Positions 41,422-52,537 of a DNA stretch of 64,000 nt are shown in pieces. Within the stretch, counting starts at the first letter, position 1. Every line of letters begins with the position of its first letter. The translations under genes and the position numbers were made by a program. Under the pieces are notes generated by a model. It was not told the origin of the DNA and did no database searches. It was given only the letters and a program-made list of their open reading frames with translations. This DNA is from Escherichia phage AV109, in the sequence record OR352939.1, one strand, 5' to 3'.

Positions 41422-41832
41422 CTACTTTTTCTTATGTTGGATATTCCAAGGCGGGTTGAACTTTTTGATAAAAAGTGGTTCTTCAAGGTCCATTGTTGCG
41501 ATGGTCATTGAACCAAGTTCGTTGGTGACTGAAAGGTCAAAACATTGGCGGGCCCAGAATTCAACCTTTTTGCCTTGCATTAAGGCATCCAAAATCATAA
41601 GTGATTTTCTTGAATCTGAAGTCTGGTCTTTTCGATTTATGGCTGTTCGATAATAGTTAATGCGTTTCTTTAAATTCTTGGTTTTACCAATATACACAAG
41701 TTCGTCATCTATAGCAATAGCATATATAACATTTTTCTTATTAGGGGCATCAATGGTTTTAATTGTTGCATCTTCTAATAGCTCCAATTCTATATATTTA
41801 ATAAAGGAATATTCGGCGGCAATATCTTTCAT
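41422..41832 (-). CDS. denA: endonuclease II (GIY-YIG-like)
   Basis: 136 aa, same length and position as T4 DenA; VIYAIAIDDELVYIGKTKNLKKR motif. Confidence 0.85.
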   Translation of the reverse strand: MKDIAAEYSFIKYIELELLEDATIKTIDAPNKKNVIYAIAIDDELVYIGKTKNLKKRINYYRTAINRKDQTSDSRKSLMILDALMQGKKVEFWARQCFDLSVTNELGSMTIATMDLEEPLFIKKFNPPWNIQHKKK

Positions 41833-41840
41833 AATAAAGT

Positions 41841-41854
41841 GGGACCGAAGTCCC
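41841..41854 (-). terminator. stem-loop GGGAC-CGAA-GTCCC between nrdB and denA
   Basis: 5-bp GC stem; weak U-tract. Confidence 0.3.
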
Positions 41855-41858
41855 GTCC

Positions 41859-42361
41859 TTAGAAATATTTTTTGTATGAATTGATTACATTTTGGTCTAC
41901 ATCATTATCAATTTGTGCGACAAGATAAGAACTGATTTCAACTTCCTGAGGAGCTGCTTGAACTAAATCAGAGTTCAGATATTCACGAATCCAAGGATAA
42001 GGATGTTTGGTCGGAGCATCAGTAATTGGACACGGCAAACCACACTGTTTCATACGAGACACAGTCAAGTAATCAACAAAAGCACACATACTCTGTGTAT
42101 TGATACCTGGACATGTACCGTCTTTAAAGAGGTGTGCAGCCCATTCCTTCTCTTGACTATTTACTTCCATAAAAATGTCAACTGCTTCTTGTTCACATTC
42201 TTTAGCAATTTGAACCCACTCATCACCATCAGTACCGGATTGAAGTTGACGGATAATGTACTGAGTACCCTTGAGATGGAGTTGTTCGTCACGAGCAATG
42301 AACTTCATAATCTTTGCATTGCCTTCCATAATTTCCATATTCTTATGGAAATTAAATGTAC
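41859..42361 (-). CDS. nrdB: ribonucleotide reductase small subunit NrdB, exon 2
   Basis: continues the NrdB sequence (..MEGNAKI..) after the intron; 3' splice site inferred after ..CGAACAUAACG, approximate. Confidence 0.85.
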
Positions 42362-42953
42362 CGTTATGTTCGATTGAGCTCGCTAATTCTCAACCCGTTC
42401 TCTTATGAACTGCTGCATATTACTATGCAGACCAGACTATATCACAATCCCGGAGGGATTCTCCCCATTTCGAGTCGCTTGACCCTACGTCCGAAGACTA
42501 GTCGTTGAACCTTGCTTTGCAATTGTCGCCGTGCCATCGTTTATATGTCGATGGTGATAAATCTTTCTTTTCACAATATGGACAATTCAATTGAATTCTA
42601 TTTGGATTTAATTTGCATCTGTCATTATGTTTTAGATAAAACCCAGGACCTTTACCAATGTGACCGCAGAAATCACATGTGATTTCTTTTTGTGCAGGAT
42701 GGGTTCCGTTCTTAACCATTTCTAATGTTTTTGCTGATGTTCTTCCATCAGAATCTTTAGGTATAGGCCCGTTAGCATCCATCCAAATTTTTCTATAATT
42801 CAATTGTGCATCCTCTTAAAAGTATAATCATATTTATTTTATAATATACTAATTAAAGGTGCAAGCAAAACCTTGGCTGCTAGTTTTCCTATAAAGGACT
42901 TTCCAGCAATTAAAGGAGTTTTCGATAAACGTTACCGTTTAAAGGCGCATTTT
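42362..42953 (-). mobile_element. group I intron in nrdB (about 592 nt) with degenerate homing-endonuclease ORF
   Basis: NrdB reading frame interrupted by an in-frame stop right after ..YVSFA; intron core shares conserved segments with the td intron; splice sites inferred. Confidence 0.8.
42498..42803 (-). CDS. intron-encoded ORF, probable degenerate HNH homing endonuclease (I-TevIII-like remnant)
   Basis: 101 aa; N-terminal WMDANGPIPKD resembles HNH endonuclease starts but lacks an intact HNH motif; Cys-rich Zn-finger-like C-terminus. Confidence 0.55.
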   Translation of the reverse strand: MNYRKIWMDANGPIPKDSDGRTSAKTLEMVKNGTHPAQKEITCDFCGHIGKGPGFYLKHNDRCKLNPNRIQLNCPYCEKKDLSPSTYKRWHGDNCKARFND

Positions 42954-43629
42954 ACGCAAAAGATACATAAAAACGAATAGCTTCCAATGCATTGATGACA
43001 TGCAAACAAAGATAAAGAGATTTCATTAGGTCTCGTTTAGCTTCGGTCTCTTGTTTAATAGCTCGGTTTAAACGAAGGTCGGCATCAGGAGATTCTTTAG
43101 CTTGTTCTACAAATTCTTTAGCATTTTCCCAATTACGAGTCTTGACTAGAACATCATCATAATATTTACCTATTGATTCAGCTCGTTTCATGATTGCTTC
43201 GTCTAATACAATCTCATCAAATACTTTGGATGGATCGGTATAAAGATTTCGCATAATATGAGTATACGAACGAGAGTGAATAGTTTCACTGAATGTCCAT
43301 GTTGCAACCCACGTATCTAATGAAGGGTCGGAAAGCAGTGCCATAAGTACCGCAGATGGGGCCCTGCCTTGGATAGAATCTAATAATGATTGATACTTAA
43401 GGTTGTTTGTAAAGATGTCCTGTTGGAACTGAGGAAGCTTATTGAACTGGGCCGAATCCAGCATCAGGTTTACTTCTTCTGGTCGCCAGAAAAACGACAA
43501 TTGCTTTTCAATAAGTTCTTCAAAAACTTTATGTCGCTGAATATCATAACGTGCGAGGCCAAGACCAGAACCAAAGAACATTGGTTCATTCAAAACATCG
43601 ACTTGTTGTGTGTTAAAAACTGTACTCAT
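42954..43629 (-). CDS. nrdB: ribonucleotide reductase small subunit NrdB, exon 1
   Basis: 225 codons of NrdB-like sequence ending ..RFYVSFA before the intron. Confidence 0.9.
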
Positions 43630-43684
43630 TATATTTTCTCACTTAGTTATTAACTCATCCATGAGTAAATTATAATCAAAAGTC

Positions 43685-45949
43685 TTAAAGCTTACAAGCA
43701 GAACAATCTTCAGCTTTAGGTGTTTCTAATTCATAGTCATCTGTACCTGACCCATCACGAGTGTTATGATAGTAGAGGTTTTTTCCGCCAAAGTACCAGA
43801 AGTAAAGCAGATCGTCAAGCATTACTGACATTGGCACTTTACCTTTCTCAAATACTGCAGGGTCATAGTAAGTATTAGCAGAAGCAGATTGGCACACCCA
43901 TTTCAACATGATAGCAACTTGGGTCAAATAAGGTTTATTACCTTTCTTAGCAAGTTTCCACGCGTAGTCGTAAAGACTCATGTTATGTTCTATATTAGGA
44001 ACAACCTGTCGGAAGTTGCCTTCTTTAGATTCTTTAATACTTACAGGTCCACGAGGTGGTTCTATACCATTTGTGCTATTTGAGACTTGACTGCTTGACT
44101 CACAAGGCATGAGTGCAGACAACGTTGAGTTACGAATTCCATGTTCTTTGAGTTCAGCTCGAAGTTCTTCCCAGTCACAGACATAGTTCGGGGCTGCGAT
44201 TTGGTCAATCTTTTTATTGTACCAGTCGATAGGTAATTCGCCTCTAGACCATTTAGTGTCTGAATAATACTCACAAGGTCCTTTTTCTTTGGCGAGTTTG
44301 ATTGATGCTTTGATAAGGCCATATTGCAATCTCTCGAACAATTCATGGGTCAAATCGTTAGCGTCTTCATATGAAGCAAAGTTAGAAGCTAACCATGCAG
44401 CATAGTTCGTCACACCAACACCGAGATTTCGACGCTTTTTAGCTTTTAAAGCTTCTGGAACCGGATAATCTTGATAGTCTAACAGGTTATCAAGTGCACG
44501 TACTTGTACTTCAGCAAGTTCATTAATTTTATCTTGGTCTTGCCAATCAAATTTATCTAATACAAAAGCAGATAATGTGCATAAACCAATTTCAGCATCA
44601 GGACCATTCACATCATTAGTTGGAATAGCGATTTCACAACATAAGTTACTCTGACGAATTGGAGCTTTTTCACGAATAAACGGAGTGTAGTTATTCGTGT
44701 TATCAACAAACTGTGGATAAATTCGAGCAGTGCCAGAACGTTCAGTCATGAACAATTCAAAGAGTTCTAGTGCTTTGATTCTTTTCTTTCTGATTGTTGG
44801 GTCTTTTTCAGCTTTCTCATAAAGCTCACGGAATTTATCTTGATCTTCAAAGAACGAGTAGTATAGTTCACCTGACATTTCGTGAGGGCTAAATAAAGTA
44901 ATATAATCATTTTTACCAAGGCGTTCCATCATAAGGTCATTAATCTGAATTCCGTAGTCCATATGTCGAATACGGTTTTCATCCACGCCTTTGTTATTTT
45001 TCAGAACTAATAGGTTCTCTACTTCTAAGTGCCACATCGGATAATACGCTGTAGCAGCACCACCACGAATACCACCTTGAGAACAAGATTTTACTGCAGT
45101 TTGGAAATGTTTCCAGAATGGAATAACACCCGTATGTCGGACTTCACCCATACCGATCTTAGAACCTTCTGCACGAAGCATACCAACGTTGATACCGATA
45201 CCAGCTCGTTTAGAAATATATTCAATAATTGATGCTGAAGTTTTGTTAATAGATTTTAACGAATCACCGGCTTCAATAACTACACAACTAGAGAACTGGC
45301 GAGTCGGAGTGCGAGCACCTGCCATAATTGGAGTAGGCAATGAAACTTGATGAGTAGAAACGGCATCATAAAAACGAATAATATGTTTCAAACGGTCATG
45401 AGTTTCGTCTTGATGTAAGGCCATACCAATAGCCATGATAGCAAACTGTGGAGTTTCATAAATCTTCCCAGTTGTTTTATCTTTAACCAAGTATTTTTCT
45501 TTAAGCTGCATAGCACCAGCATAAGTCAGGTCAAAGTCTCGTTCATGTTTAATCTGTGAATCGAGATAAATGATTTCTTCTGCTGAATATTTAGACAACA
45601 ACTCAGGGTCATATTTGCCTTCATTAACACAGTAAGAAATATGGTCGATAAAAGCAGGCGGTTCAAACTGCCCATATACATCTTTACGAAGTGCAAACAT
45701 TAGCCCTTTGGCGGCGACATACTGATAATCGGGTTCTTCGACAGAAATCAAGTTAGCTGCAACTTTAATACAAATCTTCTGAATATCTTTGGTGCTCATC
45801 CCATCAACCAGATGAGTCTTAATTTCTTCATACAATTCGTATGGGTCGATTTGTGTTCCTTCACACTGCCAAGTTAATACTTGAATAATTTTCTGTGCAT
45901 CAAAATTTTGGGATACACCTGAATTTTTCACTACTTTAAAATTATACAT
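43685..45949 (-). CDS. nrdA: ribonucleotide reductase large subunit NrdA
   Basis: 754 aa, same length as T4 NrdA; near-identical to recalled T4 sequence over long stretches. Confidence 0.97.
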   Translation of the reverse strand: MYNFKVVKNSGVSQNFDAQKIIQVLTWQCEGTQIDPYELYEEIKTHLVDGMSTKDIQKICIKVAANLISVEEPDYQYVAAKGLMFALRKDVYGQFEPPAFIDHISYCVNEGKYDPELLSKYSAEEIIYLDSQIKHERDFDLTYAGAMQLKEKYLVKDKTTGKIYETPQFAIMAIGMALHQDETHDRLKHIIRFYDAVSTHQVSLPTPIMAGARTPTRQFSSCVVIEAGDSLKSINKTSASIIEYISKRAGIGINVGMLRAEGSKIGMGEVRHTGVIPFWKHFQTAVKSCSQGGIRGGAATAYYPMWHLEVENLLVLKNNKGVDENRIRHMDYGIQINDLMMERLGKNDYITLFSPHEMSGELYYSFFEDQDKFRELYEKAEKDPTIRKKRIKALELFELFMTERSGTARIYPQFVDNTNNYTPFIREKAPIRQSNLCCEIAIPTNDVNGPDAEIGLCTLSAFVLDKFDWQDQDKINELAEVQVRALDNLLDYQDYPVPEALKAKKRRNLGVGVTNYAAWLASNFASYEDANDLTHELFERLQYGLIKASIKLAKEKGPCEYYSDTKWSRGELPIDWYNKKIDQIAAPNYVCDWEELRAELKEHGIRNSTLSALMPCESSSQVSNSTNGIEPPRGPVSIKESKEGNFRQVVPNIEHNMSLYDYAWKLAKKGNKPYLTQVAIMLKWVCQSASANTYYDPAVFEKGKVPMSVMLDDLLYFWYFGGKNLYYHNTRDGSGTDDYELETPKAEDCSACKL

Positions 45950-46577
45950 AATAATTCCATGTTGGATAATTTGATGATTTTAGACGGCGTCTAACCGTTT
46001 GGGTGCTCATAGATAAAATTATTGACGCTTCATTTAATGTATCATATATTACGTCGTTTATAATTACTTTCTTTGCAAATGGATTCTTAGCTCCTATCAT
46101 AGCGTTAGAAATAGCTTGCTTAGTTGATTCTTTTAATGGGACTCCTTTAGAAATTTTTGTTTTAATTTTTATATTGTATTGTCCGCGTTTTTTACCTAAT
46201 AAAGAATTTCGTATCTTTTCTTTAGTCTCTTCAGATTTAACATGTCCTAGTTTGGAACGAGATATTTTATCTTTTGTTTTTTGGTCTAATTTTCGCCCTT
46301 TAAGCAAATCAACCATTTTTGCTCTAGCCCATCCAAATTCTTTATTATTTCTAGAACTCATTAAATTAACCGCGGTTGCTAAACCTAAATTGTTCGGATA
46401 TATTTTTAATAAAAGAAGATGAGCCAAATAATGTTCTGAATATGTTAATTTAACTAGATTGTATGACTCATTGGTGCCACCTAAACATTTTGGGATTATA
46501 TGATGCCATTCACCATCGATATCTTCAAAATTTCTTTCTTTATTTACTAAGTTTTTATATATTTTTAAATAATCCAT
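45942..46577 (-). CDS. free-standing HNH homing endonuclease with NUMOD-like repeats
   Basis: HNH motif EWHHIIPK...NLVKLTYSEHYLAH; repeated ETKEKIR/STKQAIS motifs; track start 46589 is a GTG, ATG at 46577; overlaps nrdA start by 8 nt. Confidence 0.8.
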   Translation of the reverse strand: MDYLKIYKNLVNKERNFEDIDGEWHHIIPKCLGGTNESYNLVKLTYSEHYLAHLLLLKIYPNNLGLATAVNLMSSRNNKEFGWARAKMVDLLKGRKLDQKTKDKISRSKLGHVKSEETKEKIRNSLLGKKRGQYNIKIKTKISKGVPLKESTKQAISNAMIGAKNPFAKKVIINDVIYDTLNEASIILSMSTQTVRRRLKSSNYPTWNYYV

Positions 46578-46653
46578 AGTATAATCCACTTTGTAGTATC
46601 AACGGGATAGTATTTATCCCGTTAATTTTATTATACACTTTTAAACTGAAGCG

Positions 46654-46908
46654 TTAATTATCCTCAGCAATAATTTCTTCGTATTCTTTAGGTGTCAAGA
46701 CCGTGATATTGAAATAAACCAACGGTTCTTTTTCCACACCGTAACCACCACAGAATTCACGATATTCATAAATTCGTTCATGTGAATAACAAATGAATCG
46801 TTCACCTTTAACTATGATTTCACTATTCGGTGAAGGGATATCTAGTTCGGTAGGATTTTTCATTTCAAAAATTGTGGTGCCATATGAATTAATAAAACGT
46901 AAAATCAT
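46654..46908 (-). CDS. hypothetical protein (nrdA.1-like position)
   Basis: 84-aa ORF between td exon 2 and the HNH gene. Confidence 0.5.
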   Translation of the reverse strand: MILRFINSYGTTIFEMKNPTELDIPSPNSEIIVKGERFICYSHERIYEYREFCGGYGVEKEPLVYFNITVLTPKEYEEIIAEDN

Positions 46909-46909
46909 T

Positions 46910-47221
46910 TTATACCGCCATTTTAGCTTTGATAGCTGGATGTGATTCGTAATTTTTAAGAACGAAATCAGAATGTGTCATCGTTCCGGTAACCCAGTCC
47001 ATTTGGATTTTTGTAGGCCAATTCTCAAAATTACTAGGCCAATTAATTTCAAGAGAACATAACTCTTTAGGTTCACGACGAAGAACTTCTTTGCATTGTT
47101 CTACATGATTGCTGTAGATATGCGTGTTGCCGCCTGAGAACACTAAATCACCTGGGATAAGGTTACACATCTTCGCTACAATATGTGTCAAGGCAGCGTA
47201 CGAGGCGATGTTGAACGGTAG
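46910..47221 (-). CDS. td: thymidylate synthase, exon 2
   Basis: LPFNIASYAAL.. continues the ThyA sequence; 3' splice site ..AUAAUG|CUA as in T4 td. Confidence 0.92.
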   Translation of the reverse strand, partial: LPFNIASYAALTHIVAKMCNLIPGDLVFSGGNTHIYSNHVEQCKEVLRREPKELCSLEINWPSNFENWPTKIQMDWVTGTMTHSDFVLKNYESHPAIKAKMAV

Positions 47222-48237
47222 CATTATGTTCAGATAAGGTCGTTAATCTTATCCCGGAATTATATCCAGCTGCATGTCACCATGCAGAGCAGACTATATC
47301 TCCAACTTGTTAAAGCAAGTTGTCTATCGTTTCGAGTCACTTGACCCTACTCCCTAAAGGGATAGTCGTTAGGCATTTATGTAGAACCAATTCCACTTAT
47401 CAGATTTTACACGGTAAGTAACTAATCCTGATGAAATTTCAAAATGTCTAGCCGCATCGGCTGCACATTCAAAAATAATCCCATCGCATGAAATCTTTTT
47501 GATGTTAGCTGGCTTTTTGCCTTTCATCTTTTCAGATAGTTTAGTTTTAGTTTTTTCTGAATGTTTGTGATTAAAGAACGGGTTATTTTCACCTGAACGT
47601 TTTCGGCACTTTCCACAAGTATCGGCCGAAGATGGTATGCGAACACCGCATTTACAAAACTTGTGGTTTTCTGGATTCCATCGGCCATTTTTACTTCCGT
47701 GTTTACCATAAAGAGCTTTCCGACCATCAGGACCAAGCTTAAGCATCTTAGCTTTAACAGTTTCAGCTCGTTTCTTAGCAATTTCTTCTTTTAATGGATG
47801 ATTTGAAAGCACATCGCCAAAAGACGCATCAGCAATATTATATCCATTAATTTTAGAATTTAGCTCTTTAATCCAAAAATTTTCTCGTTCAATAATCAAA
47901 TCTTTCTCATATGGAATTTCTTCCAGTATAGAGCATTCAAAAACATTACCATGTTTATTAAAAGACCTTTGAAATTTTATAGAAGAGTGAACACCGTTTT
48001 CAAGGTCTTTAAAATGTCTCTTCCATCTTTTCTCAAAATCTTTAGCACTTCCAACATACACTTTACCGTTTAAAGTGTTTTTAATCTGATAAATTCCGCT
48101 TTTCATAAACACCTCTTTTTATATAGAAGTATTTATTAAAGGGTAGTCCTACAATTTAGCACGGGATTGTCTACTAGAGAGGTCCCCCGTTTAGATAGAT
48201 TACAAGTATAAGTCACCTTATACCTAGGCCTAAATTA
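47222..48237 (-). mobile_element. group I intron in td (1016 nt) carrying I-TevI
   Basis: 5' end UAAUUUAGGCCUAGGUAUAAGGUGACUUAUACUUGUAAUCUAUCUAAACGGGG matches the recalled T4 td intron; length 1016 as in T4. Confidence 0.92.
47369..48106 (-). CDS. I-TevI: GIY-YIG homing endonuclease I-TevI (intron-encoded)
   Basis: 245 aa from the ATG at 48106 (track starts at an upstream GTG); near-identical to recalled T4 I-TevI. Confidence 0.93.
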   Translation of the reverse strand: MKSGIYQIKNTLNGKVYVGSAKDFEKRWKRHFKDLENGVHSSIKFQRSFNKHGNVFECSILEEIPYEKDLIIERENFWIKELNSKINGYNIADASFGDVLSNHPLKEEIAKKRAETVKAKMLKLGPDGRKALYGKHGSKNGRWNPENHKFCKCGVRIPSSADTCGKCRKRSGENNPFFNHKHSEKTKTKLSEKMKGKKPANIKKISCDGIIFECAADAARHFEISSGLVTYRVKSDKWNWFYINA

Positions 48238-48786
48238 ACCTAAGAAAACATCTACACTGCGTTGATACCATTGTAAATCAAGATGTCCATTACGCACATT
48301 AAATTGATAGAACATATGACAAGGAGGAAGAGCCATTTGATTTATTTCAGCCGGATTCCAGGCAGAAACAATTTGACGACGATCAGTTGGTAATTTTTTA
48401 ATACGGTCGATTGTTTCAACTAATTGGTCTACACCACCAAAATCACGCCATTGCTTACCATAAATAGGACCAAGTTCGCCGCTATGATATCCAAGGTCTT
48501 TTGCCTGATTTTCATAGTTGTCGTCCCAAATAGTTTTACCTTGAATAAGACTACCATGAGTACGAATACGCAAATCATTAACATTTGTAGAGCCAGACAT
48601 GAACCATAATAGCTCAGCAATACAAGCTTTCCATGCAAGCTTCTTGGTTGTTACTGCAGGAAATCCTTTAGTCAGATCCCATCGCAATTTAGTTCCGAAC
48701 AGGGCAATAGTGCCGGTACCTGTACGGTCGTCTGTTTCGTAGCCATTTTCTAGGATATCATTAATCAGGTATTGGTATTGTTTCAT
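48238..48786 (-). CDS. td: thymidylate synthase, exon 1
   Basis: 183 codons ending ..QRSVDVFLG immediately before the intron UAA. Confidence 0.93.
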
Positions 48787-49370
48787 TTATATACGCTCTC
48801 AGTAATTTCGGTGAGTTCATCGATTCTGTAGTAATGAGATTCTACCATAGAACGTTGAAGCATAATATCTTGAATGAAATCTTTATCAAGTTGAACGTCT
48901 GAATTAACACGACATTTCTTAATGATTTTAGTCATCACGATTTCATCAGCATAAGGCAATGCTTGTTTCAATAAAGCAGGGCCACCAATAACAGATACAT
49001 CAACATGTTCAGTAGAAAGTTTAAATGGTACGTCAGTTGCAGTGCTAAACAGGTTAATTTCACCACCCATTACCAAGGTAATAAATTCAGATTGGGTGAT
49101 ATAGAAACGCGCAAGTTCGTTGGTTTTGGTCCTAGGCAGTTCTCTGGCCATATCAGTGACAACCACATGAGTACGATCCTGGAGTAGACGAGGTAATGAT
49201 GCAAAAGTCTTAGCACCCATAACCATTACAGTGTTTTTAGTGCGAGCAACAAAGTTACTCATATCTTGTTTGATATGCTTCCATGGAAGTCCATCACCTA
49301 ATCCAAAAGCATATTCCAGTTTATCATCAACTGTTTTAGTCGGAGCGCATGCGAATACTAATTTAAGCAT
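48783..49370 (-). CDS. frd: dihydrofolate reductase
   Basis: 195 aa; matches recalled T4 Frd (GLGDGLPW, VSVIGGPALL, LPYADE); ATGA overlap with td. Confidence 0.93.
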   Translation of the reverse strand: MLKLVFACAPTKTVDDKLEYAFGLGDGLPWKHIKQDMSNFVARTKNTVMVMGAKTFASLPRLLQDRTHVVVTDMARELPRTKTNELARFYITQSEFITLVMGGEINLFSTATDVPFKLSTEHVDVSVIGGPALLKQALPYADEIVMTKIIKKCRVNSDVQLDKDFIQDIMLQRSMVESHYYRIDELTEITESVYK

Positions 49371-49373
49371 TTT

Positions 49374-49622
49374 TTATTTCCTCAGATTTTTCTTAACAAC
49401 TTTCCAATCAGCTTTAAACGATTCAACATCAGAGTGGTGAATCCAGAATCCTGCACTTTCACCATCTTCGTAGAGTGGACATCCATCGCATTCTTCGTTC
49501 CAACCCATTTCACGTAAAGCTTCTTCAGCTTGTTCAAGGAGTTCAGCGTCTTTACCAACGATGTTGAAGTACCATTTACCTCTAACTTCAGAATCTTTGA
49601 TGCTCTGGCGTTGCAATCTCAT
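49374..49622 (-). CDS. hypothetical protein (frd.1-like position), 82 aa from ATG
   Basis: track ORF starts at a GTG at 49685; the ATG at 49622 is preceded by GAAGGAG. Confidence 0.5.
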   Translation of the reverse strand: MRLQRQSIKDSEVRGKWYFNIVGKDAELLEQAEEALREMGWNEECDGCPLYEDGESAGFWIHHSDVESFKADWKVVKKNLRK

Positions 49623-50190: not shown

Positions 50191-51090
50191 TTATAGACCA
50201 GCTAACAGGTCATCGAGGTCGCCATCGTCAGAAGACGAGGAACTCATGAAGTCATCTTCAGTTTTTGCAGAACTAAAGGCTTCCATGTCTTTATCAAAAT
50301 CGTCAAGGTCAGAAGCAACTTTATCTGCAACAGAAGCTGCTGCGGCTGCTGCACCACCAAGAGCGGCAGTACCAAGAACTTGATTAAATTTAGTATTCAA
50401 TTCTTCAAACGATTTGAACTTATCTTTAGAAGTCATTTCAGAAAGGTCGACCATTTGTTCGAACAATTCTTTCTGGAAAGATTCATCATCAATGTTTGGA
50501 ATCGCAGATTGATTCAGGAATTTAGATTCGTCGTAGTTACTGAAACCAGAAACCTGTTTAACTTTCAGCACGAAGTTAGCACCTTCCCATGGGCAAGTTA
50601 CATCAACAGGAGTTTCACCCATTTCAGTATCGACTGCAATCATTGCATTGATTTTGTCCCAAATCTTTTTACCGAAACGATATTTGAATACTTTACCTTC
50701 ATTATCTGGAGCTTGAGGGTCTTTAACAACCAGAATATTAGCCCAATAAGAAGTTTTACGTTTCAGTTGAGAATATTCAGTTTTGTTGGTATTGTACAGG
50801 TCATTTTTACTAATGTACTGACATACAGGACAAGAGTCATAATCACCGTGTGTAGATGAACAGGTTTCAATATACCATTTGCCATTTTTCTTGAACCCGT
50901 GGTTAACAAGAATTGCAAACGGAAGTGCGTCATCTGTTTTTGCCGGCAGGAAACGAATTACCGCTTGGCCATTACCGGATGCGTCGAGTTTCAGCTTCCA
51001 TTCACCTTTATCTTCTGAAGAGAAACCTTTGTTACCATTCAGTTTAGCCATCTGAGCTGCGAGGTCTGCGGTACTTTTACGTTTAAACAT
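50191..51090 (-). CDS. 32: single-stranded DNA-binding protein (T4 gp32-like)
   Basis: 299 aa; near-identical to recalled T4 gp32, including the acidic Ser/Asp-rich C-terminus. Confidence 0.97.
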
Positions 51091-51207: not shown

Positions 51208-51861
51208 TTAATACTTACATGATTTGATTGTTTCTATGAACAATTTCTTAGCAGCATTTCTATCGATTTGAAGTATTTTTCGATATGCCTTTAATTTGGT
51301 AGAATAATTTTGCCAGACTAAGTTATCGGTGAGTTCGTCGTGCTTATCTATAATATTCAAAAATGAGTCCAACAATAAGAAAGTCTCAAATGAAATTATA
51401 TTGCTTTGTAGCAATTTGAATATGTAGCTCGACTGAACGTTGCTATTATAATCAAATATCTCTTGAAGCGCACTAACTTCAACTTTCTTACTGAAATAGT
51501 AGATGTTACGTACGTCTTCAGCAAACGACTCTTTAGCTTGTTTGAGACGTCCAATATATTCCCTATAGAAAACTAATGCATCAGCGTCTGATATCTCACC
51601 AATCCATGCGTCTTGGTTAGCAACTAAGTTGCTTATGAATATCAAGGTGAGTTCCTTCAATTTATATTTCTCTGCTAGTTTTTCAAAGAAATATTTATCT
51701 CGGCGTTTTTGATACGCATTATCCGAAACACGCATGCACCAGTTATATTTGATTACGTCATACCGACCACCAAAGTGGTTTTTGCACATCAAGTATAGTT
51801 TATATACTGATTTTCCATTAATATAACGTTCTCCGTCAGGAGGCATGCGTATTTTAATCAT
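51208..51861 (-). CDS. 59: helicase loader (T4 gp59-like)
   Basis: 217 aa; near-identical to recalled T4 gp59. Confidence 0.95.
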   Translation of the reverse strand: MIKIRMPPDGERYINGKSVYKLYLMCKNHFGGRYDVIKYNWCMRVSDNAYQKRRDKYFFEKLAEKYKLKELTLIFISNLVANQDAWIGEISDADALVFYREYIGRLKQAKESFAEDVRNIYYFSKKVEVSALQEIFDYNSNVQSSYIFKLLQSNIISFETFLLLDSFLNIIDKHDELTDNLVWQNYSTKLKAYRKILQIDRNAAKKLFIETIKSCKY

Positions 51862-52537
51862 AGTTCCATCCAGGCCATTTTGAAGATTTAAGTCTATATG
51901 TAACTAAAGACGCAGAAATATTAAAAACATTTGAAACTTCTTTACACGAGGCGTATTTTATACCATCAATAATTATAGGTTTTTGTTTTTTAATAGTTCT
52001 TTCTTTAGAATGCGGCTTTGAATTTGCTATTCTAAGAGCTTCTTTGGTTGAATCAGGCATCGGCTTATTCGTTTTTCGCCCTTTTCGGACTTTACTCAAG
52101 GCCAATTTGTGAGCTTCAGATAGTTTCTTACCCTTATTAGGTGACGGTATTTTTCTTTCTAGTCTTGTTTTAGATACTTTAGCCTTAGTCTCTTCAGATC
52201 TAGGTTTACCTAATTTAGAAAGTGAAATAGACCTTTTAGCTTCATCACTTTGTTTTTTACCAGGACCACCTTTACCACCGGGAACTAAGTTATAAGTATC
52301 ATCTCGCAAAACAAAATCTTCATTAACCAATTCTGCTTCTTTTTTATAGGCGTCCTTGTCATTATCATATTCATAAAGAATTTCGGTATAAAAATTTTTT
52401 AGTCCATATTTAGCTTTGGCCGCTAATATAGCGCGGCCTGATCCAATATACCAATCTTTCTCTTTATGTTTTTTGTGTACGCCTATATAAATTTTACCAT
52501 TTATTTTATTGGTAGTTTTATACACAACGTATTTCAT
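51854..52537 (-). CDS. free-standing GIY-YIG homing endonuclease (Seg-like) between genes 33 and 59
   Basis: N-terminal YKTTNKINGKIYIG GIY-YIG motif, NUMOD-like Lys/Ser repeats, C-terminal DNA-binding region; ATGA overlap with gene 33 and 8-nt overlap with gene 59. Confidence 0.85.
   Translation of the reverse strand: MKYVVYKTTNKINGKIYIGVHKKHKEKDWYIGSGRAILAAKAKYGLKNFYTEILYEYDNDKDAYKKEAELVNEDFVLRDDTYNLVPGGKGGPGKKQSDEAKRSISLSKLGKPRSEETKAKVSKTRLERKIPSPNKGKKLSEAHKLALSKVRKGRKTNKPMPDSTKEALRIANSKPHSKERTIKKQKPIIIDGIKYASCKEVSNVFNISASLVTYRLKSSKWPGWNYD

Follow-up and report, generated by a model that had tools for sequence, protein, structure and literature searches.

The question raised by this locus is what kind of gene has come to lie immediately upstream of nrdA in a T4-like phage, and whether it can be regarded as a mobile element. 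The window (the whole stretch of 64,000 nucleotides of Escherichia phage AV109, OR352939.1, that was analysed) matches the Mosigvirus Escherichia phage AV114 (OR352944.1) at 99.9%, and its Mosigvirus relatives are therefore the relevant comparison. A preliminary description had placed here, at 45942-46589, an ORF that has an HNH motif and NUMOD-like repeats and shares 8 nt with the beginning of nrdA, and had proposed that it is a free-standing homing endonuclease located differently from mobE of phage T4.

The ORF is indeed present on the minus strand (GTG start, 215 aa) and shares positions 45942-45949 with nrdA. The in-frame GTG at 46589 adds four codons to the reading frame, and translation more probably begins at the ATG at 46577. 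This ATG is preferred because it is the start annotated by GenBank in AV114 and its relatives and because the alignments of homologues begin at the methionine that it encodes, M1 being invariant and Y3 and Y7 nearly so. The gene is found between a DUF5496 ORF and an nrdA gene that is itself uninterrupted, which makes it free-standing. The coordinates of all features are collected in Table 1.

Table 1. Features of the td-nrdA interval of the window (positions are those of the whole stretch)
Feature	Position	Strand	Remarks
HNH homing endonuclease ORF	45942..46577	-	211 aa from ATG; intact in 6/6 copies compared
HNH beta-beta-alpha-metal catalytic core	46401..46511	-	residues ~23-59 (EWHHIIPK...N...EHYLAH)
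NUMOD3-type repeat linker	46083..46292	-	residues ~96-165; Pfam NUMOD3 E 1.4e-5
C-terminal I-TevI-type helix-turn-helix DNA-binding domain	45951..46100	-	residues ~160-209
681-nt cassette, HNH-carrying phages only	45920..46600	-	replaces 56-nt segment of HNH-less allele; from junction mapping
New nrdA 5' end from cassette	45920..45949	-	codons 1-10 MYNFKVVKNS in place of MQVTKSS
nrdA, ribonucleotide reductase large subunit	43685..45949	-	downstream host gene; start now within cassette
Conserved 23-nt hairpin (AACGGGATA AATAC TATCCCGTT)	46601..46623	-	abuts left junction; common to HNH-carrying and HNH-less alleles
Predicted promoter, both alleles	46630..46657	-	TTAACG, 16 nt, TATAAT; consensus scan 10/12
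Upstream neighbour, 84-aa DUF5496 ORF	46654..46908	-	Pfam DUF5496 E 7.7e-12; phrog_2458; placed like T4 nrdA.2

In the catalytic core the residues H25, H26, N40, H49 and H53 (numbering of the 211-aa product) are invariant across 48 homologues, and the beta-hairpin and helix that characterise the HNH superfamily are folded around the motif. The Pfam HNH models gave no match to the protein itself at E <= 0.01; PF01844 is carried by the homologues P0044 and P0071, and a search with the family profile gave matches at E 1e-3 to 4e-3 to the HNH motifs of McrA, of Cas8-HNH and of a group II intron maturase. As a predicted member of this superfamily the protein would nick or cleave DNA in a metal-dependent manner. 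The repeats claimed earlier were recovered by Pfam as a NUMOD3 linker, which aligns with the NUMOD3 region of a Seg-like ORF at 51854-52537 and forms the flexible, low-confidence part of the predicted structure. The C-terminal domain, which was absent from the preliminary description, contains a helix-turn-helix matching I-TevI residues ~190-245 and is of the I-TevI DNA-binding type (PF20987). The protein as a whole matches phrog_655, 'homing endonuclease', at E 2e-45.

Structure-based comparison, for which the input alignment of the prediction had no T4 MobE row, had both the DNA-binding domain of I-TevI and I-HmuI among its best matches. A single-sequence search against solved structures returned insignificant matches only, and the family profile was needed. 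I-HmuI of the Bacillus phage SPO1 (PDB 1U3E), an HNH nicking endonuclease, has 19% identity with the protein over 72 aligned residues and is intron-encoded, unlike the gene described here. The C-terminal helix-turn-helix module of I-TevI (PDB 1I3J/1T2T) matches that of our protein, and the C-terminal half of the Seg-like ORF is 36% identical to its own (E 1e-14), whereas the catalytic domain of our protein is HNH and not, as in the Seg-like ORF, GIY-YIG. Nuclease and DNA-binding modules are known to be shuffled, and the pairing of an HNH core with an I-TevI-type domain is, as read from these alignments, one instance of this.

In T4 the gene order td, nrdA.2, nrdA.1 (DUF4326), nrdA, mobE, nrdB, which agrees with the preliminary description, was confirmed. 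T4 MobE is a free-standing HNH endonuclease encoded between nrdA and nrdB (Wilson & Edgell 2009, PMC2790892). Its gene is promoterless, co-transcribed and overlaps nrdA, and the enzyme nicks nrdB near the insertion site, which is accompanied by inheritance at high frequency (PMC2790892, PMC2988022); seven free-standing endonucleases of T4 are promoterless cassettes (PMC2790892, PMC2988022). The gene in the window resembles mobE in its homologous N-terminal part with HNH and NUMOD3, in being free-standing in the nrd cluster with no obvious promoter of its own, in overlapping nrdA by a few nucleotides and in being variably present among close relatives. However, mobE follows nrdA, whereas the gene described here precedes it at the td/nrdA.2-nrdA junction and, unlike mobE, supplies the nrdA start codon and first 10 codons. 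Moreover the C-terminal domain is I-TevI-type and not alignable to that of MobE, and no internal terminator was found, in contrast to mobE.

Since MobE is the best match in T4, the gene could be thought to be an ordinary mobE orthologue that was moved by rearrangement from downstream to upstream of nrdA. This is scarcely credible, as BLASTP against MobE aligned only residues 1-167 with 33% identity (E 7e-27) and left the C-terminal domain unaligned. In Mosigvirus relatives the mobE position can also be taken by a distinct NUMOD3 gene, and HNH genes with 33-39% identity occupy unrelated sites in other phages. The nrdA-nrdB spacer of the window, for which a gap of 55 nt had been stated, does measure 55 nt (43630-43684) and holds no ORF; it is thus the td/nrdA.2-nrdA site that is occupied and the mobE site that is empty, and the different placement claimed for the endonuclease stands. 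Because the ~33% identity does not extend beyond the N-terminal ~170 residues and the C-terminus is different, the protein is, on the alignment evidence, a paralogue or homologue of MobE and not the mobE orthologue, and the latter assignment was rejected. The other nrdA-adjacent HNH matches that were inspected (ECO4, P479 and T4) are all at the mobE position, and the T4 insertion sites given in PMC2988022 include no td-nrdA slot.

The annotation as a group I intron-encoded endonuclease, found in WFL6982 and WFK, was rejected as well, because the empty allele is a plain 87-nt intergenic spacer in most Mosigvirus relatives and because Rfam at gathering threshold detected neither an intron nor any further RNA family within 41500-49500, a region that includes the split td and nrdB genes. 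The cassette is intergenic or overlaps the 5' end of a gene.

Comparison of the td-nrdA interval revealed a clean presence/absence polymorphism. The junctions were mapped by aligning the window and five other HNH-carrying genomes with seven HNH-less genomes, and they are identical in all six carriers and all seven non-carriers. The 56 nt that are replaced include the nrdA Shine-Dalgarno sequence and the first seven codons. In the cassette the nrdA ATG sits within the last codons of the HNH ORF, and the new 5' end has a T4-like length and encodes as TCA a serine for which AGT is used in the empty allele and in T4. The MYNFKVVKNS N-terminus is confined to the 11 HNH-carrying records and is strictly linked to the HNH gene, and for this reason the donor lineage of the nrdA 5' end could not be identified. 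Among phage records the cassette occupies the td-nrdA site in 11 and the site is empty in 116, while up to ~25 seem to have a T4-like nrdA.1 ORF there, two of which were inspected. The carriers are a small minority of the RB69-like coliphages (Mosigvirus).

The direction of change is not given by presence and absence alone, and the HNH gene might have been ancestral at this site and lost by most Mosigvirus, in which case the polymorphism would reflect deletion and not invasion. We consider this very unlikely and have rejected it on several grounds. The 56-nt segment of the empty allele has no counterpart inside the cassette, and therefore a simple deletion cannot produce the empty allele. The MQVTKSS start of nrdA is also present in Mosigvirus phages carrying nrdA.1, and a similar one, MQVQKSS, in another genus; hence MQVTKSS represents the older state. 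In addition, diversity within the cassette is 0.9% against 3.5% and 2.3% in the flanks (2.3-3.5% in flanking nrdA), that is 3-4 times lower. A search of 5.8 billion proteins returned one close 90%-identity cluster (98% identity), the next matches being at most 62% identical and partial, which also argues against an ancestral gene. A scan of IMG/VR for relatives of the protein found nothing.

The occurrence of the cassette is patchy. It is missing from G2469, the closest genome to AV114, and present in the more distant SSE1, and it is seen with all states (present or absent) of the td and nrdB introns. An alignment of the flanks of the cassette (660 nt on the upstream side and 2.2 kb on the downstream side) from five carriers and seven non-carriers contained no fixed difference between the two groups and no visible co-conversion tract or haplotype, and offered no clue to a cleavage site beyond the 56 nt. 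Along nrdA, carriers diverge from each other as much as from non-carriers, and consequently they do not form a local clade. The low diversity of the cassette on such varied backgrounds suggests recent spread. This polymorphism, with shuffled flanks around a cassette of low diversity, is consistent with mobility of the HNH gene; the population data fit equally well any insertion of single origin within a group of phages that recombine extensively. The preliminary description had put forward localised gene conversion in co-infections with caution, which is appropriate.

The six copies of the HNH ORF vary at 8 nonsynonymous and 6 synonymous sites, so that purifying selection is weak or not discernible. 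Such similar counts would agree with an endonuclease homologue that has decayed or been domesticated, has lost the ability to home and either is kept solely for the nrdA translation start or regulates the nrd operon by binding to DNA. That an endonuclease can persist after becoming defunct is known from T4 I-TevIII (PMC2790892), and, as the cassette carries the nrdA start codon and N-terminus, its deletion would be costly whatever the nuclease activity. We nevertheless regard this explanation as unlikely, because the HNH catalytic positions are all intact and invariant, all six ORFs are full length and the spread of the cassette seems to be recent. Judging from its homology and domain order, its free-standing position and its sporadic presence with a discrete insertion, which are the features of phrog_655 and of the T4 Mob type, the ORF, which is intact, belongs to the free-standing HNH endonucleases of the T4 Mob type.

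The reading that we favour, with a probability of roughly 0.7, is that a promoterless 681-nt homing cassette of the T4 Mob type has been inserted, in a minority of Mosigvirus phages, at a site bounded by the leader and codon 8 of nrdA. A sequence scan found no late promoter or terminator within the cassette. The hairpin next to its left junction has a predicted RNA fold of -19.7 kcal/mol (z -3.6), and the promoter predicted upstream, called as a consensus match, includes a MotA-box-like aaCGCTTCA located 11 nt upstream of the -10 element. From the comparison of this box with the published T4 MotA-box consensus, we are inclined to see here a putative middle promoter of nrdA, which would now drive the HNH gene and then nrdA.

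According to this model of a homing cassette, the HNH gene would make use of the predicted middle promoter and the 5' hairpin that already existed upstream of nrdA, would also be transcribed by read-through from td, and would be the first cistron of the nrdA message. Translation of NrdA would start by coupling or re-initiation at the AUG located 5 nt before the HNH stop codon. In a mixed infection the enzyme would nick or cut HNH-less genomes in or across the 56-nt segment, the predicted position in the recipient being in or next to TGGAGTAATGTCTATCAACCTATACTGAGGAATATATGCAAGTAACTAAGAGCAGT. The target is placed there because no other sequence shows a consistent difference between the alleles. 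The cassette would then be copied into the cut genome during repair templated by the HNH-carrying one. The diverged nrdA 5' end, which was probably co-converted from the original donor and left behind as a remnant, would protect carriers from their own enzyme. Both cleavage and homing are activities that we infer for the protein. Some free-standing endonucleases, such as SegH and Hef, reportedly also cut their own genome, and the argument for a target in the replaced segment is therefore not compelling. Still more tentatively, and we would call it doubtful, NrdA expression may depend on translation of the HNH gene; the element would then be effectively undeletable, and the replaced segment would be at the same time the target in rival phages and the immunity determinant.

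Hef is said to replace mobE at the nrdA-nrdB site. The present locus is comparable to Hef and SegH (Sandegren et al. 2005, cited in PMC2988022) and to the 'HEG islands' described around ribonucleotide reductase genes (Barth et al. 2023, PMC10448857), in that different endonuclease genes are found in alternative slots around the nrd genes of related phages. In the td-nrdA-nrdB module of the window, td also holds a gene resembling I-TevI, and nrdB a short ORF resembling I-TevIII.

The gene type is well known, public records already label this gene "homing endonuclease", and what is described here is an uncharacterised member. Given that genes for ribonucleotide reductase are classic targets of endonucleases (PMC2988022, PMC10448857), it will not surprise the specialist. 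The gene represents one further occupied slot in the endonuclease-rich td-nrdA-nrdB module of T4-like phages and a compact example of how a host gene can have its translation start and first codons supplanted by those of a probable homing cassette, in a clade that is tiny and recent. Since isolates exist for carriers and non-carriers (AV114 versus AV110 or G2469), the questions of homing, target site and immunity are directly testable. If NrdA expression does depend on the HNH gene, the td-nrdA site of Mosigvirus with its three alleles (empty, HNH and nrdA.1) would be a clean natural system, in which endonuclease-driven allele exclusion and host-gene capture would be measured.

In phage AV109 all genes from gene 32 to exon 2 of nrdB are carried on the minus strand (see the table), and a free-standing HNH endonuclease ORF lies between the DUF5496 ORF and nrdA. 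A preliminary description had placed such a gene upstream of nrdA, and the ORF is real; the GTG at 46589 taken there as its start is replaced by the ATG at 46577, which is used in GenBank annotations and at which the family alignment begins. The 8-nt overlap with nrdA (45942-45949), the 55-nt nrdA-nrdB spacer and the gene order described for T4 (td, nrdA.2, nrdA.1 (DUF4326), nrdA, mobE, nrdB) were found to be correct. Phage AV114 (OR352944.1; Straboviridae, Tevenvirinae, Mosigvirus) matches 1.8 kb around the HNH ORF at 99.9%. The sole length difference from its record in this stretch falls between the hairpin and the predicted -10 element, where AAAA stands at about 46626-46629 and AV114 and 11 of 11 aligned relatives have AAA; the extra A reflects either strain variation or a difference in sequencing of the homopolymer.

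Features of the td-nrdA-nrdB region of phage AV109 (window coordinates)
Feature	Position	Strand	Remarks
gene 32	50191-51090	-	first in order
frd	48783-49370	-	after gene 32
td exon 1	48235-48786	-	
I-TevI-like GIY-YIG ORF	47369-48112	-	between td exons
td exon 2	46910-47224	-	
Predicted promoter	46657-46630		upstream of hairpin
DUF5496 ORF	46654-46908	-	84 aa; between td exon 2 and HNH ORF
Hairpin	46601-46623		23 nt; 9-bp stem
Cassette	45920-46600		681 nt
HNH ORF	45942-46577	-	211 aa; ATG start
nrdA	43685-45949	-	after HNH ORF
nrdB exon 1	42952-43629	-	
Short ORF	42498-42803	-	101 aa; between nrdB exons
nrdB exon 2	41859-42338	-	
Seg-like GIY-YIG ORF	51854-52537	-	227 aa; adjoins gene 59

Both td (46910-48786) and nrdB (41859-43629) are split, td holding a full I-TevI-like ORF. 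The short nrdB ORF had no Pfam matches; since its place is taken by a 269-aa ORF in the relatives a20 and WFL6982, it appears to be a truncated form of I-TevIII, such as T4 also has. A gathering search of Rfam gave no group I intron model in td or nrdB.

The limits of the insertion were mapped on the gene-sense strand against phage F27, which has no HNH gene, and afterwards in five further carriers and six further non-carriers. The alleles are identical through the hairpin AACGGGATAAATACTATCCCGTT, itself included, and identity resumes at GGTGTATCCC, which is nrdA codon 8 in the empty allele and codon 11 in the window. Between these flanks carriers have 681 nt and non-carriers 56 nt. The replaced 56 nt contain the GAGGAA Shine-Dalgarno of nrdA and codons 1-7 (MQVTKSS); the cassette brings a 23-nt leader, the HNH ORF and an alternative nrdA start (MYNFKVVKNS), whose ATG, 5 nt ahead of the HNH stop codon, has no more than a weak GGA in front of it. 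This N-terminus of NrdA is confined to the 11 carrier records. It has the same length as the T4 start (MQLINVIKSS) and a similar V-x-K-x-S pattern, although the codons differ, and we infer that it is a diverged homologous nrdA 5' end which arrived with the cassette from a donor phage. Both alleles have the hairpin, perfectly conserved, in their nrdA leader. Read on the plus strand, it has the look of a terminator with a T-rich run after it; it may be a 5' mRNA stabiliser, a processing site or an antisense terminator.

The predicted promoter (TTAACG, 16 nt, TATAAT) is common to both alleles and matches the consensus at 10 of 12 positions. The MotA box of T4 has the consensus (a/t)(a/t)(a/t)TGCTT(t/c)A, and since aaCGCTTCA, 11 nt upstream of the -10 element, resembles it, the site is plausibly the nrdA middle promoter. 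Fold prediction pairs GUAUAAU, the -10 region, present in read-through transcripts only, with AUUAUAC directly 5' of the HNH AUG in a 7-bp A/U-rich helix. On early transcripts the ribosome-binding sites of endonuclease genes are known to be sequestered, and such a helix would recall this, a likeness to which we give little weight. Within the cassette neither a late-promoter consensus nor a terminator was found, nor any further MotA-like site paired with a -10 element, so that it looks like a promoterless insertion into the nrdA leader; seven free-standing endonuclease genes of T4 are likewise promoterless (PMC2988022).

The HNH protein matched phrog_655 'homing endonuclease' in PHROGs (E 2e-45). 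Pfam detected NUMOD3, in agreement with the NUMOD-like repeats noticed earlier, and, as a borderline match at the C-terminus, an I-TevI DNA-binding domain; none of its HNH models matched at E <= 0.01. The HNH motif previously read from the sequence is borne out by alignment with 47 database homologues, in which five residues (H25, H26, N40, H49, H53) are without variation; they are the HNH catalytic and metal-binding positions. The family profile matched McrA, Cas8-HNH and a group II intron maturase in their HNH motifs (E about 1e-3); its match to 1I3J, the DNA-binding domain of I-TevI, had E 1.9e-4. In the AlphaFold model (mean pLDDT 80.7) residues 23-59 form a confident beta-beta-alpha unit, the NUMOD3 linker is poorly ordered and the C-terminal helix-turn-helix is confident (pLDDT about 93). 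Domain matches and model therefore give an extended HNH, linker and helix-turn-helix layout, which is established for I-HmuI and has been proposed for MobE (PMC2790892).

BLASTP aligned residues 1-167 with MobE, the best T4 match, at 33% identity (E 7e-27) and left the C-terminal ~45 residues unaligned. Its C-terminal half instead shares 36% identity (E 1e-14) with the C-terminal half of the Seg-like ORF, made up of NUMOD3 and a helix-turn-helix, so that two different nuclease domains bear the same DNA-binding module within one genome. This C-terminal half is also 30% identical to the DNA-binding domain of the I-TevI-like ORF, and these likenesses to GIY-YIG ORFs are an instance of the well-known exchange of modules between nuclease and DNA-binding parts. 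Among 5.8 billion clustered proteins the sole close 90% cluster (P0001) has 98% identity, followed by matches of about 30-40% over the full length or at most 62% over short partial alignments. In the phage collection the gene occurs in 11 records (97.7-99.5% amino-acid identity), and the next full-length matches (<=39%) belong to Klebsiella and Yersinia phages, where they occupy unrelated sites. The other nrdA-adjacent HNH genes inspected, those of ECO4, P479 and T4, are all at the mobE position. In the HNH-less phage AV111 (L009, 1282-4441) nrdA is in two ORFs with an annotated homing endonuclease gene (ORF 2261-2971) separating them, resembling the 'genes in pieces' of Aeh1 mobE.

Counted with a 191-nt probe spanning the empty junction, the intact empty allele is present in 116 records, and the match is split in two in 11 records, the carriers; about 25 further records match on the nrdA side only. 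The two of these inspected, KAW3E185 and SHSML-52-1 (2213-2518 in L017 and L018), have at the td-nrdA site, as T4, a 101-aa nrdA.1/DUF4326 ORF that takes the place of the promoter and hairpin spacer. Since empty, HNH and nrdA.1 states are seen, the site has three alleles within the genus. KAW3E185 has a NUMOD3 gene additionally at the mobE position.

Every state of the neighbouring introns is found among carriers: AV114 has the td intron and a short nrdB-intron ORF, a20 the td intron and a full-length 269-aa nrdB-intron ORF, WFL6982 the full-length ORF and no td intron, and SSE1 and a Logan contig no introns. G2469, the closest genome to AV114 according to the authors of the latter (PMC10844046), is without the cassette. 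In an alignment of 660 nt upstream and 2.2 kb downstream (5 carriers, 7 non-carriers) no site was fixed between the groups, and divergence along nrdA was equal among carriers, among non-carriers and between them. Pairwise diversity averages 0.9% within the cassette, against 3.5% over the initial 600 nt of nrdA and 2.3% downstream of these. The HNH ORF is intact in 6 of 6 copies, with 6 synonymous and 8 nonsynonymous variable sites and one more in the 5' leader. These data are consistent with one fairly recent origin, after which the cassette spread to varied backgrounds; alone they do not prove homing, because T4-like phages recombine very freely.

MobE nicks T2 nrdB near its insertion site and is inherited at high frequency, and its own genome is thought to be spared through polymorphisms there (PMC2790892). 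By analogy, the HNH enzyme would act in co-infection on Mosigvirus genomes that lack its gene, nicking or cutting them near the td-nrdA junction, and the cassette would then be copied into them by recombinational repair. Since the replaced 56 nt are the sole consistent difference between the alleles, either the target would overlap this segment, explaining self-immunity too, or the enzyme would cut both alleles, as Sandegren in 2005 reportedly found for SegH and Hef.

Genes for ribonucleotide reductase are a classic target of endonucleases, and the literature describes 'HEG islands' around them (PMC2988022, PMC10448857). Public records already annotate the HNH gene as 'homing endonuclease'; the label 'group I intron endonuclease' in two records is wrong. 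The novelty is modest, and consists of a Mob-like lineage that is distinct and of narrow distribution, a slot between td and nrdA absent among the T4 insertion sites listed in PMC2988022, and an nrdA translation start taken over by the cassette.
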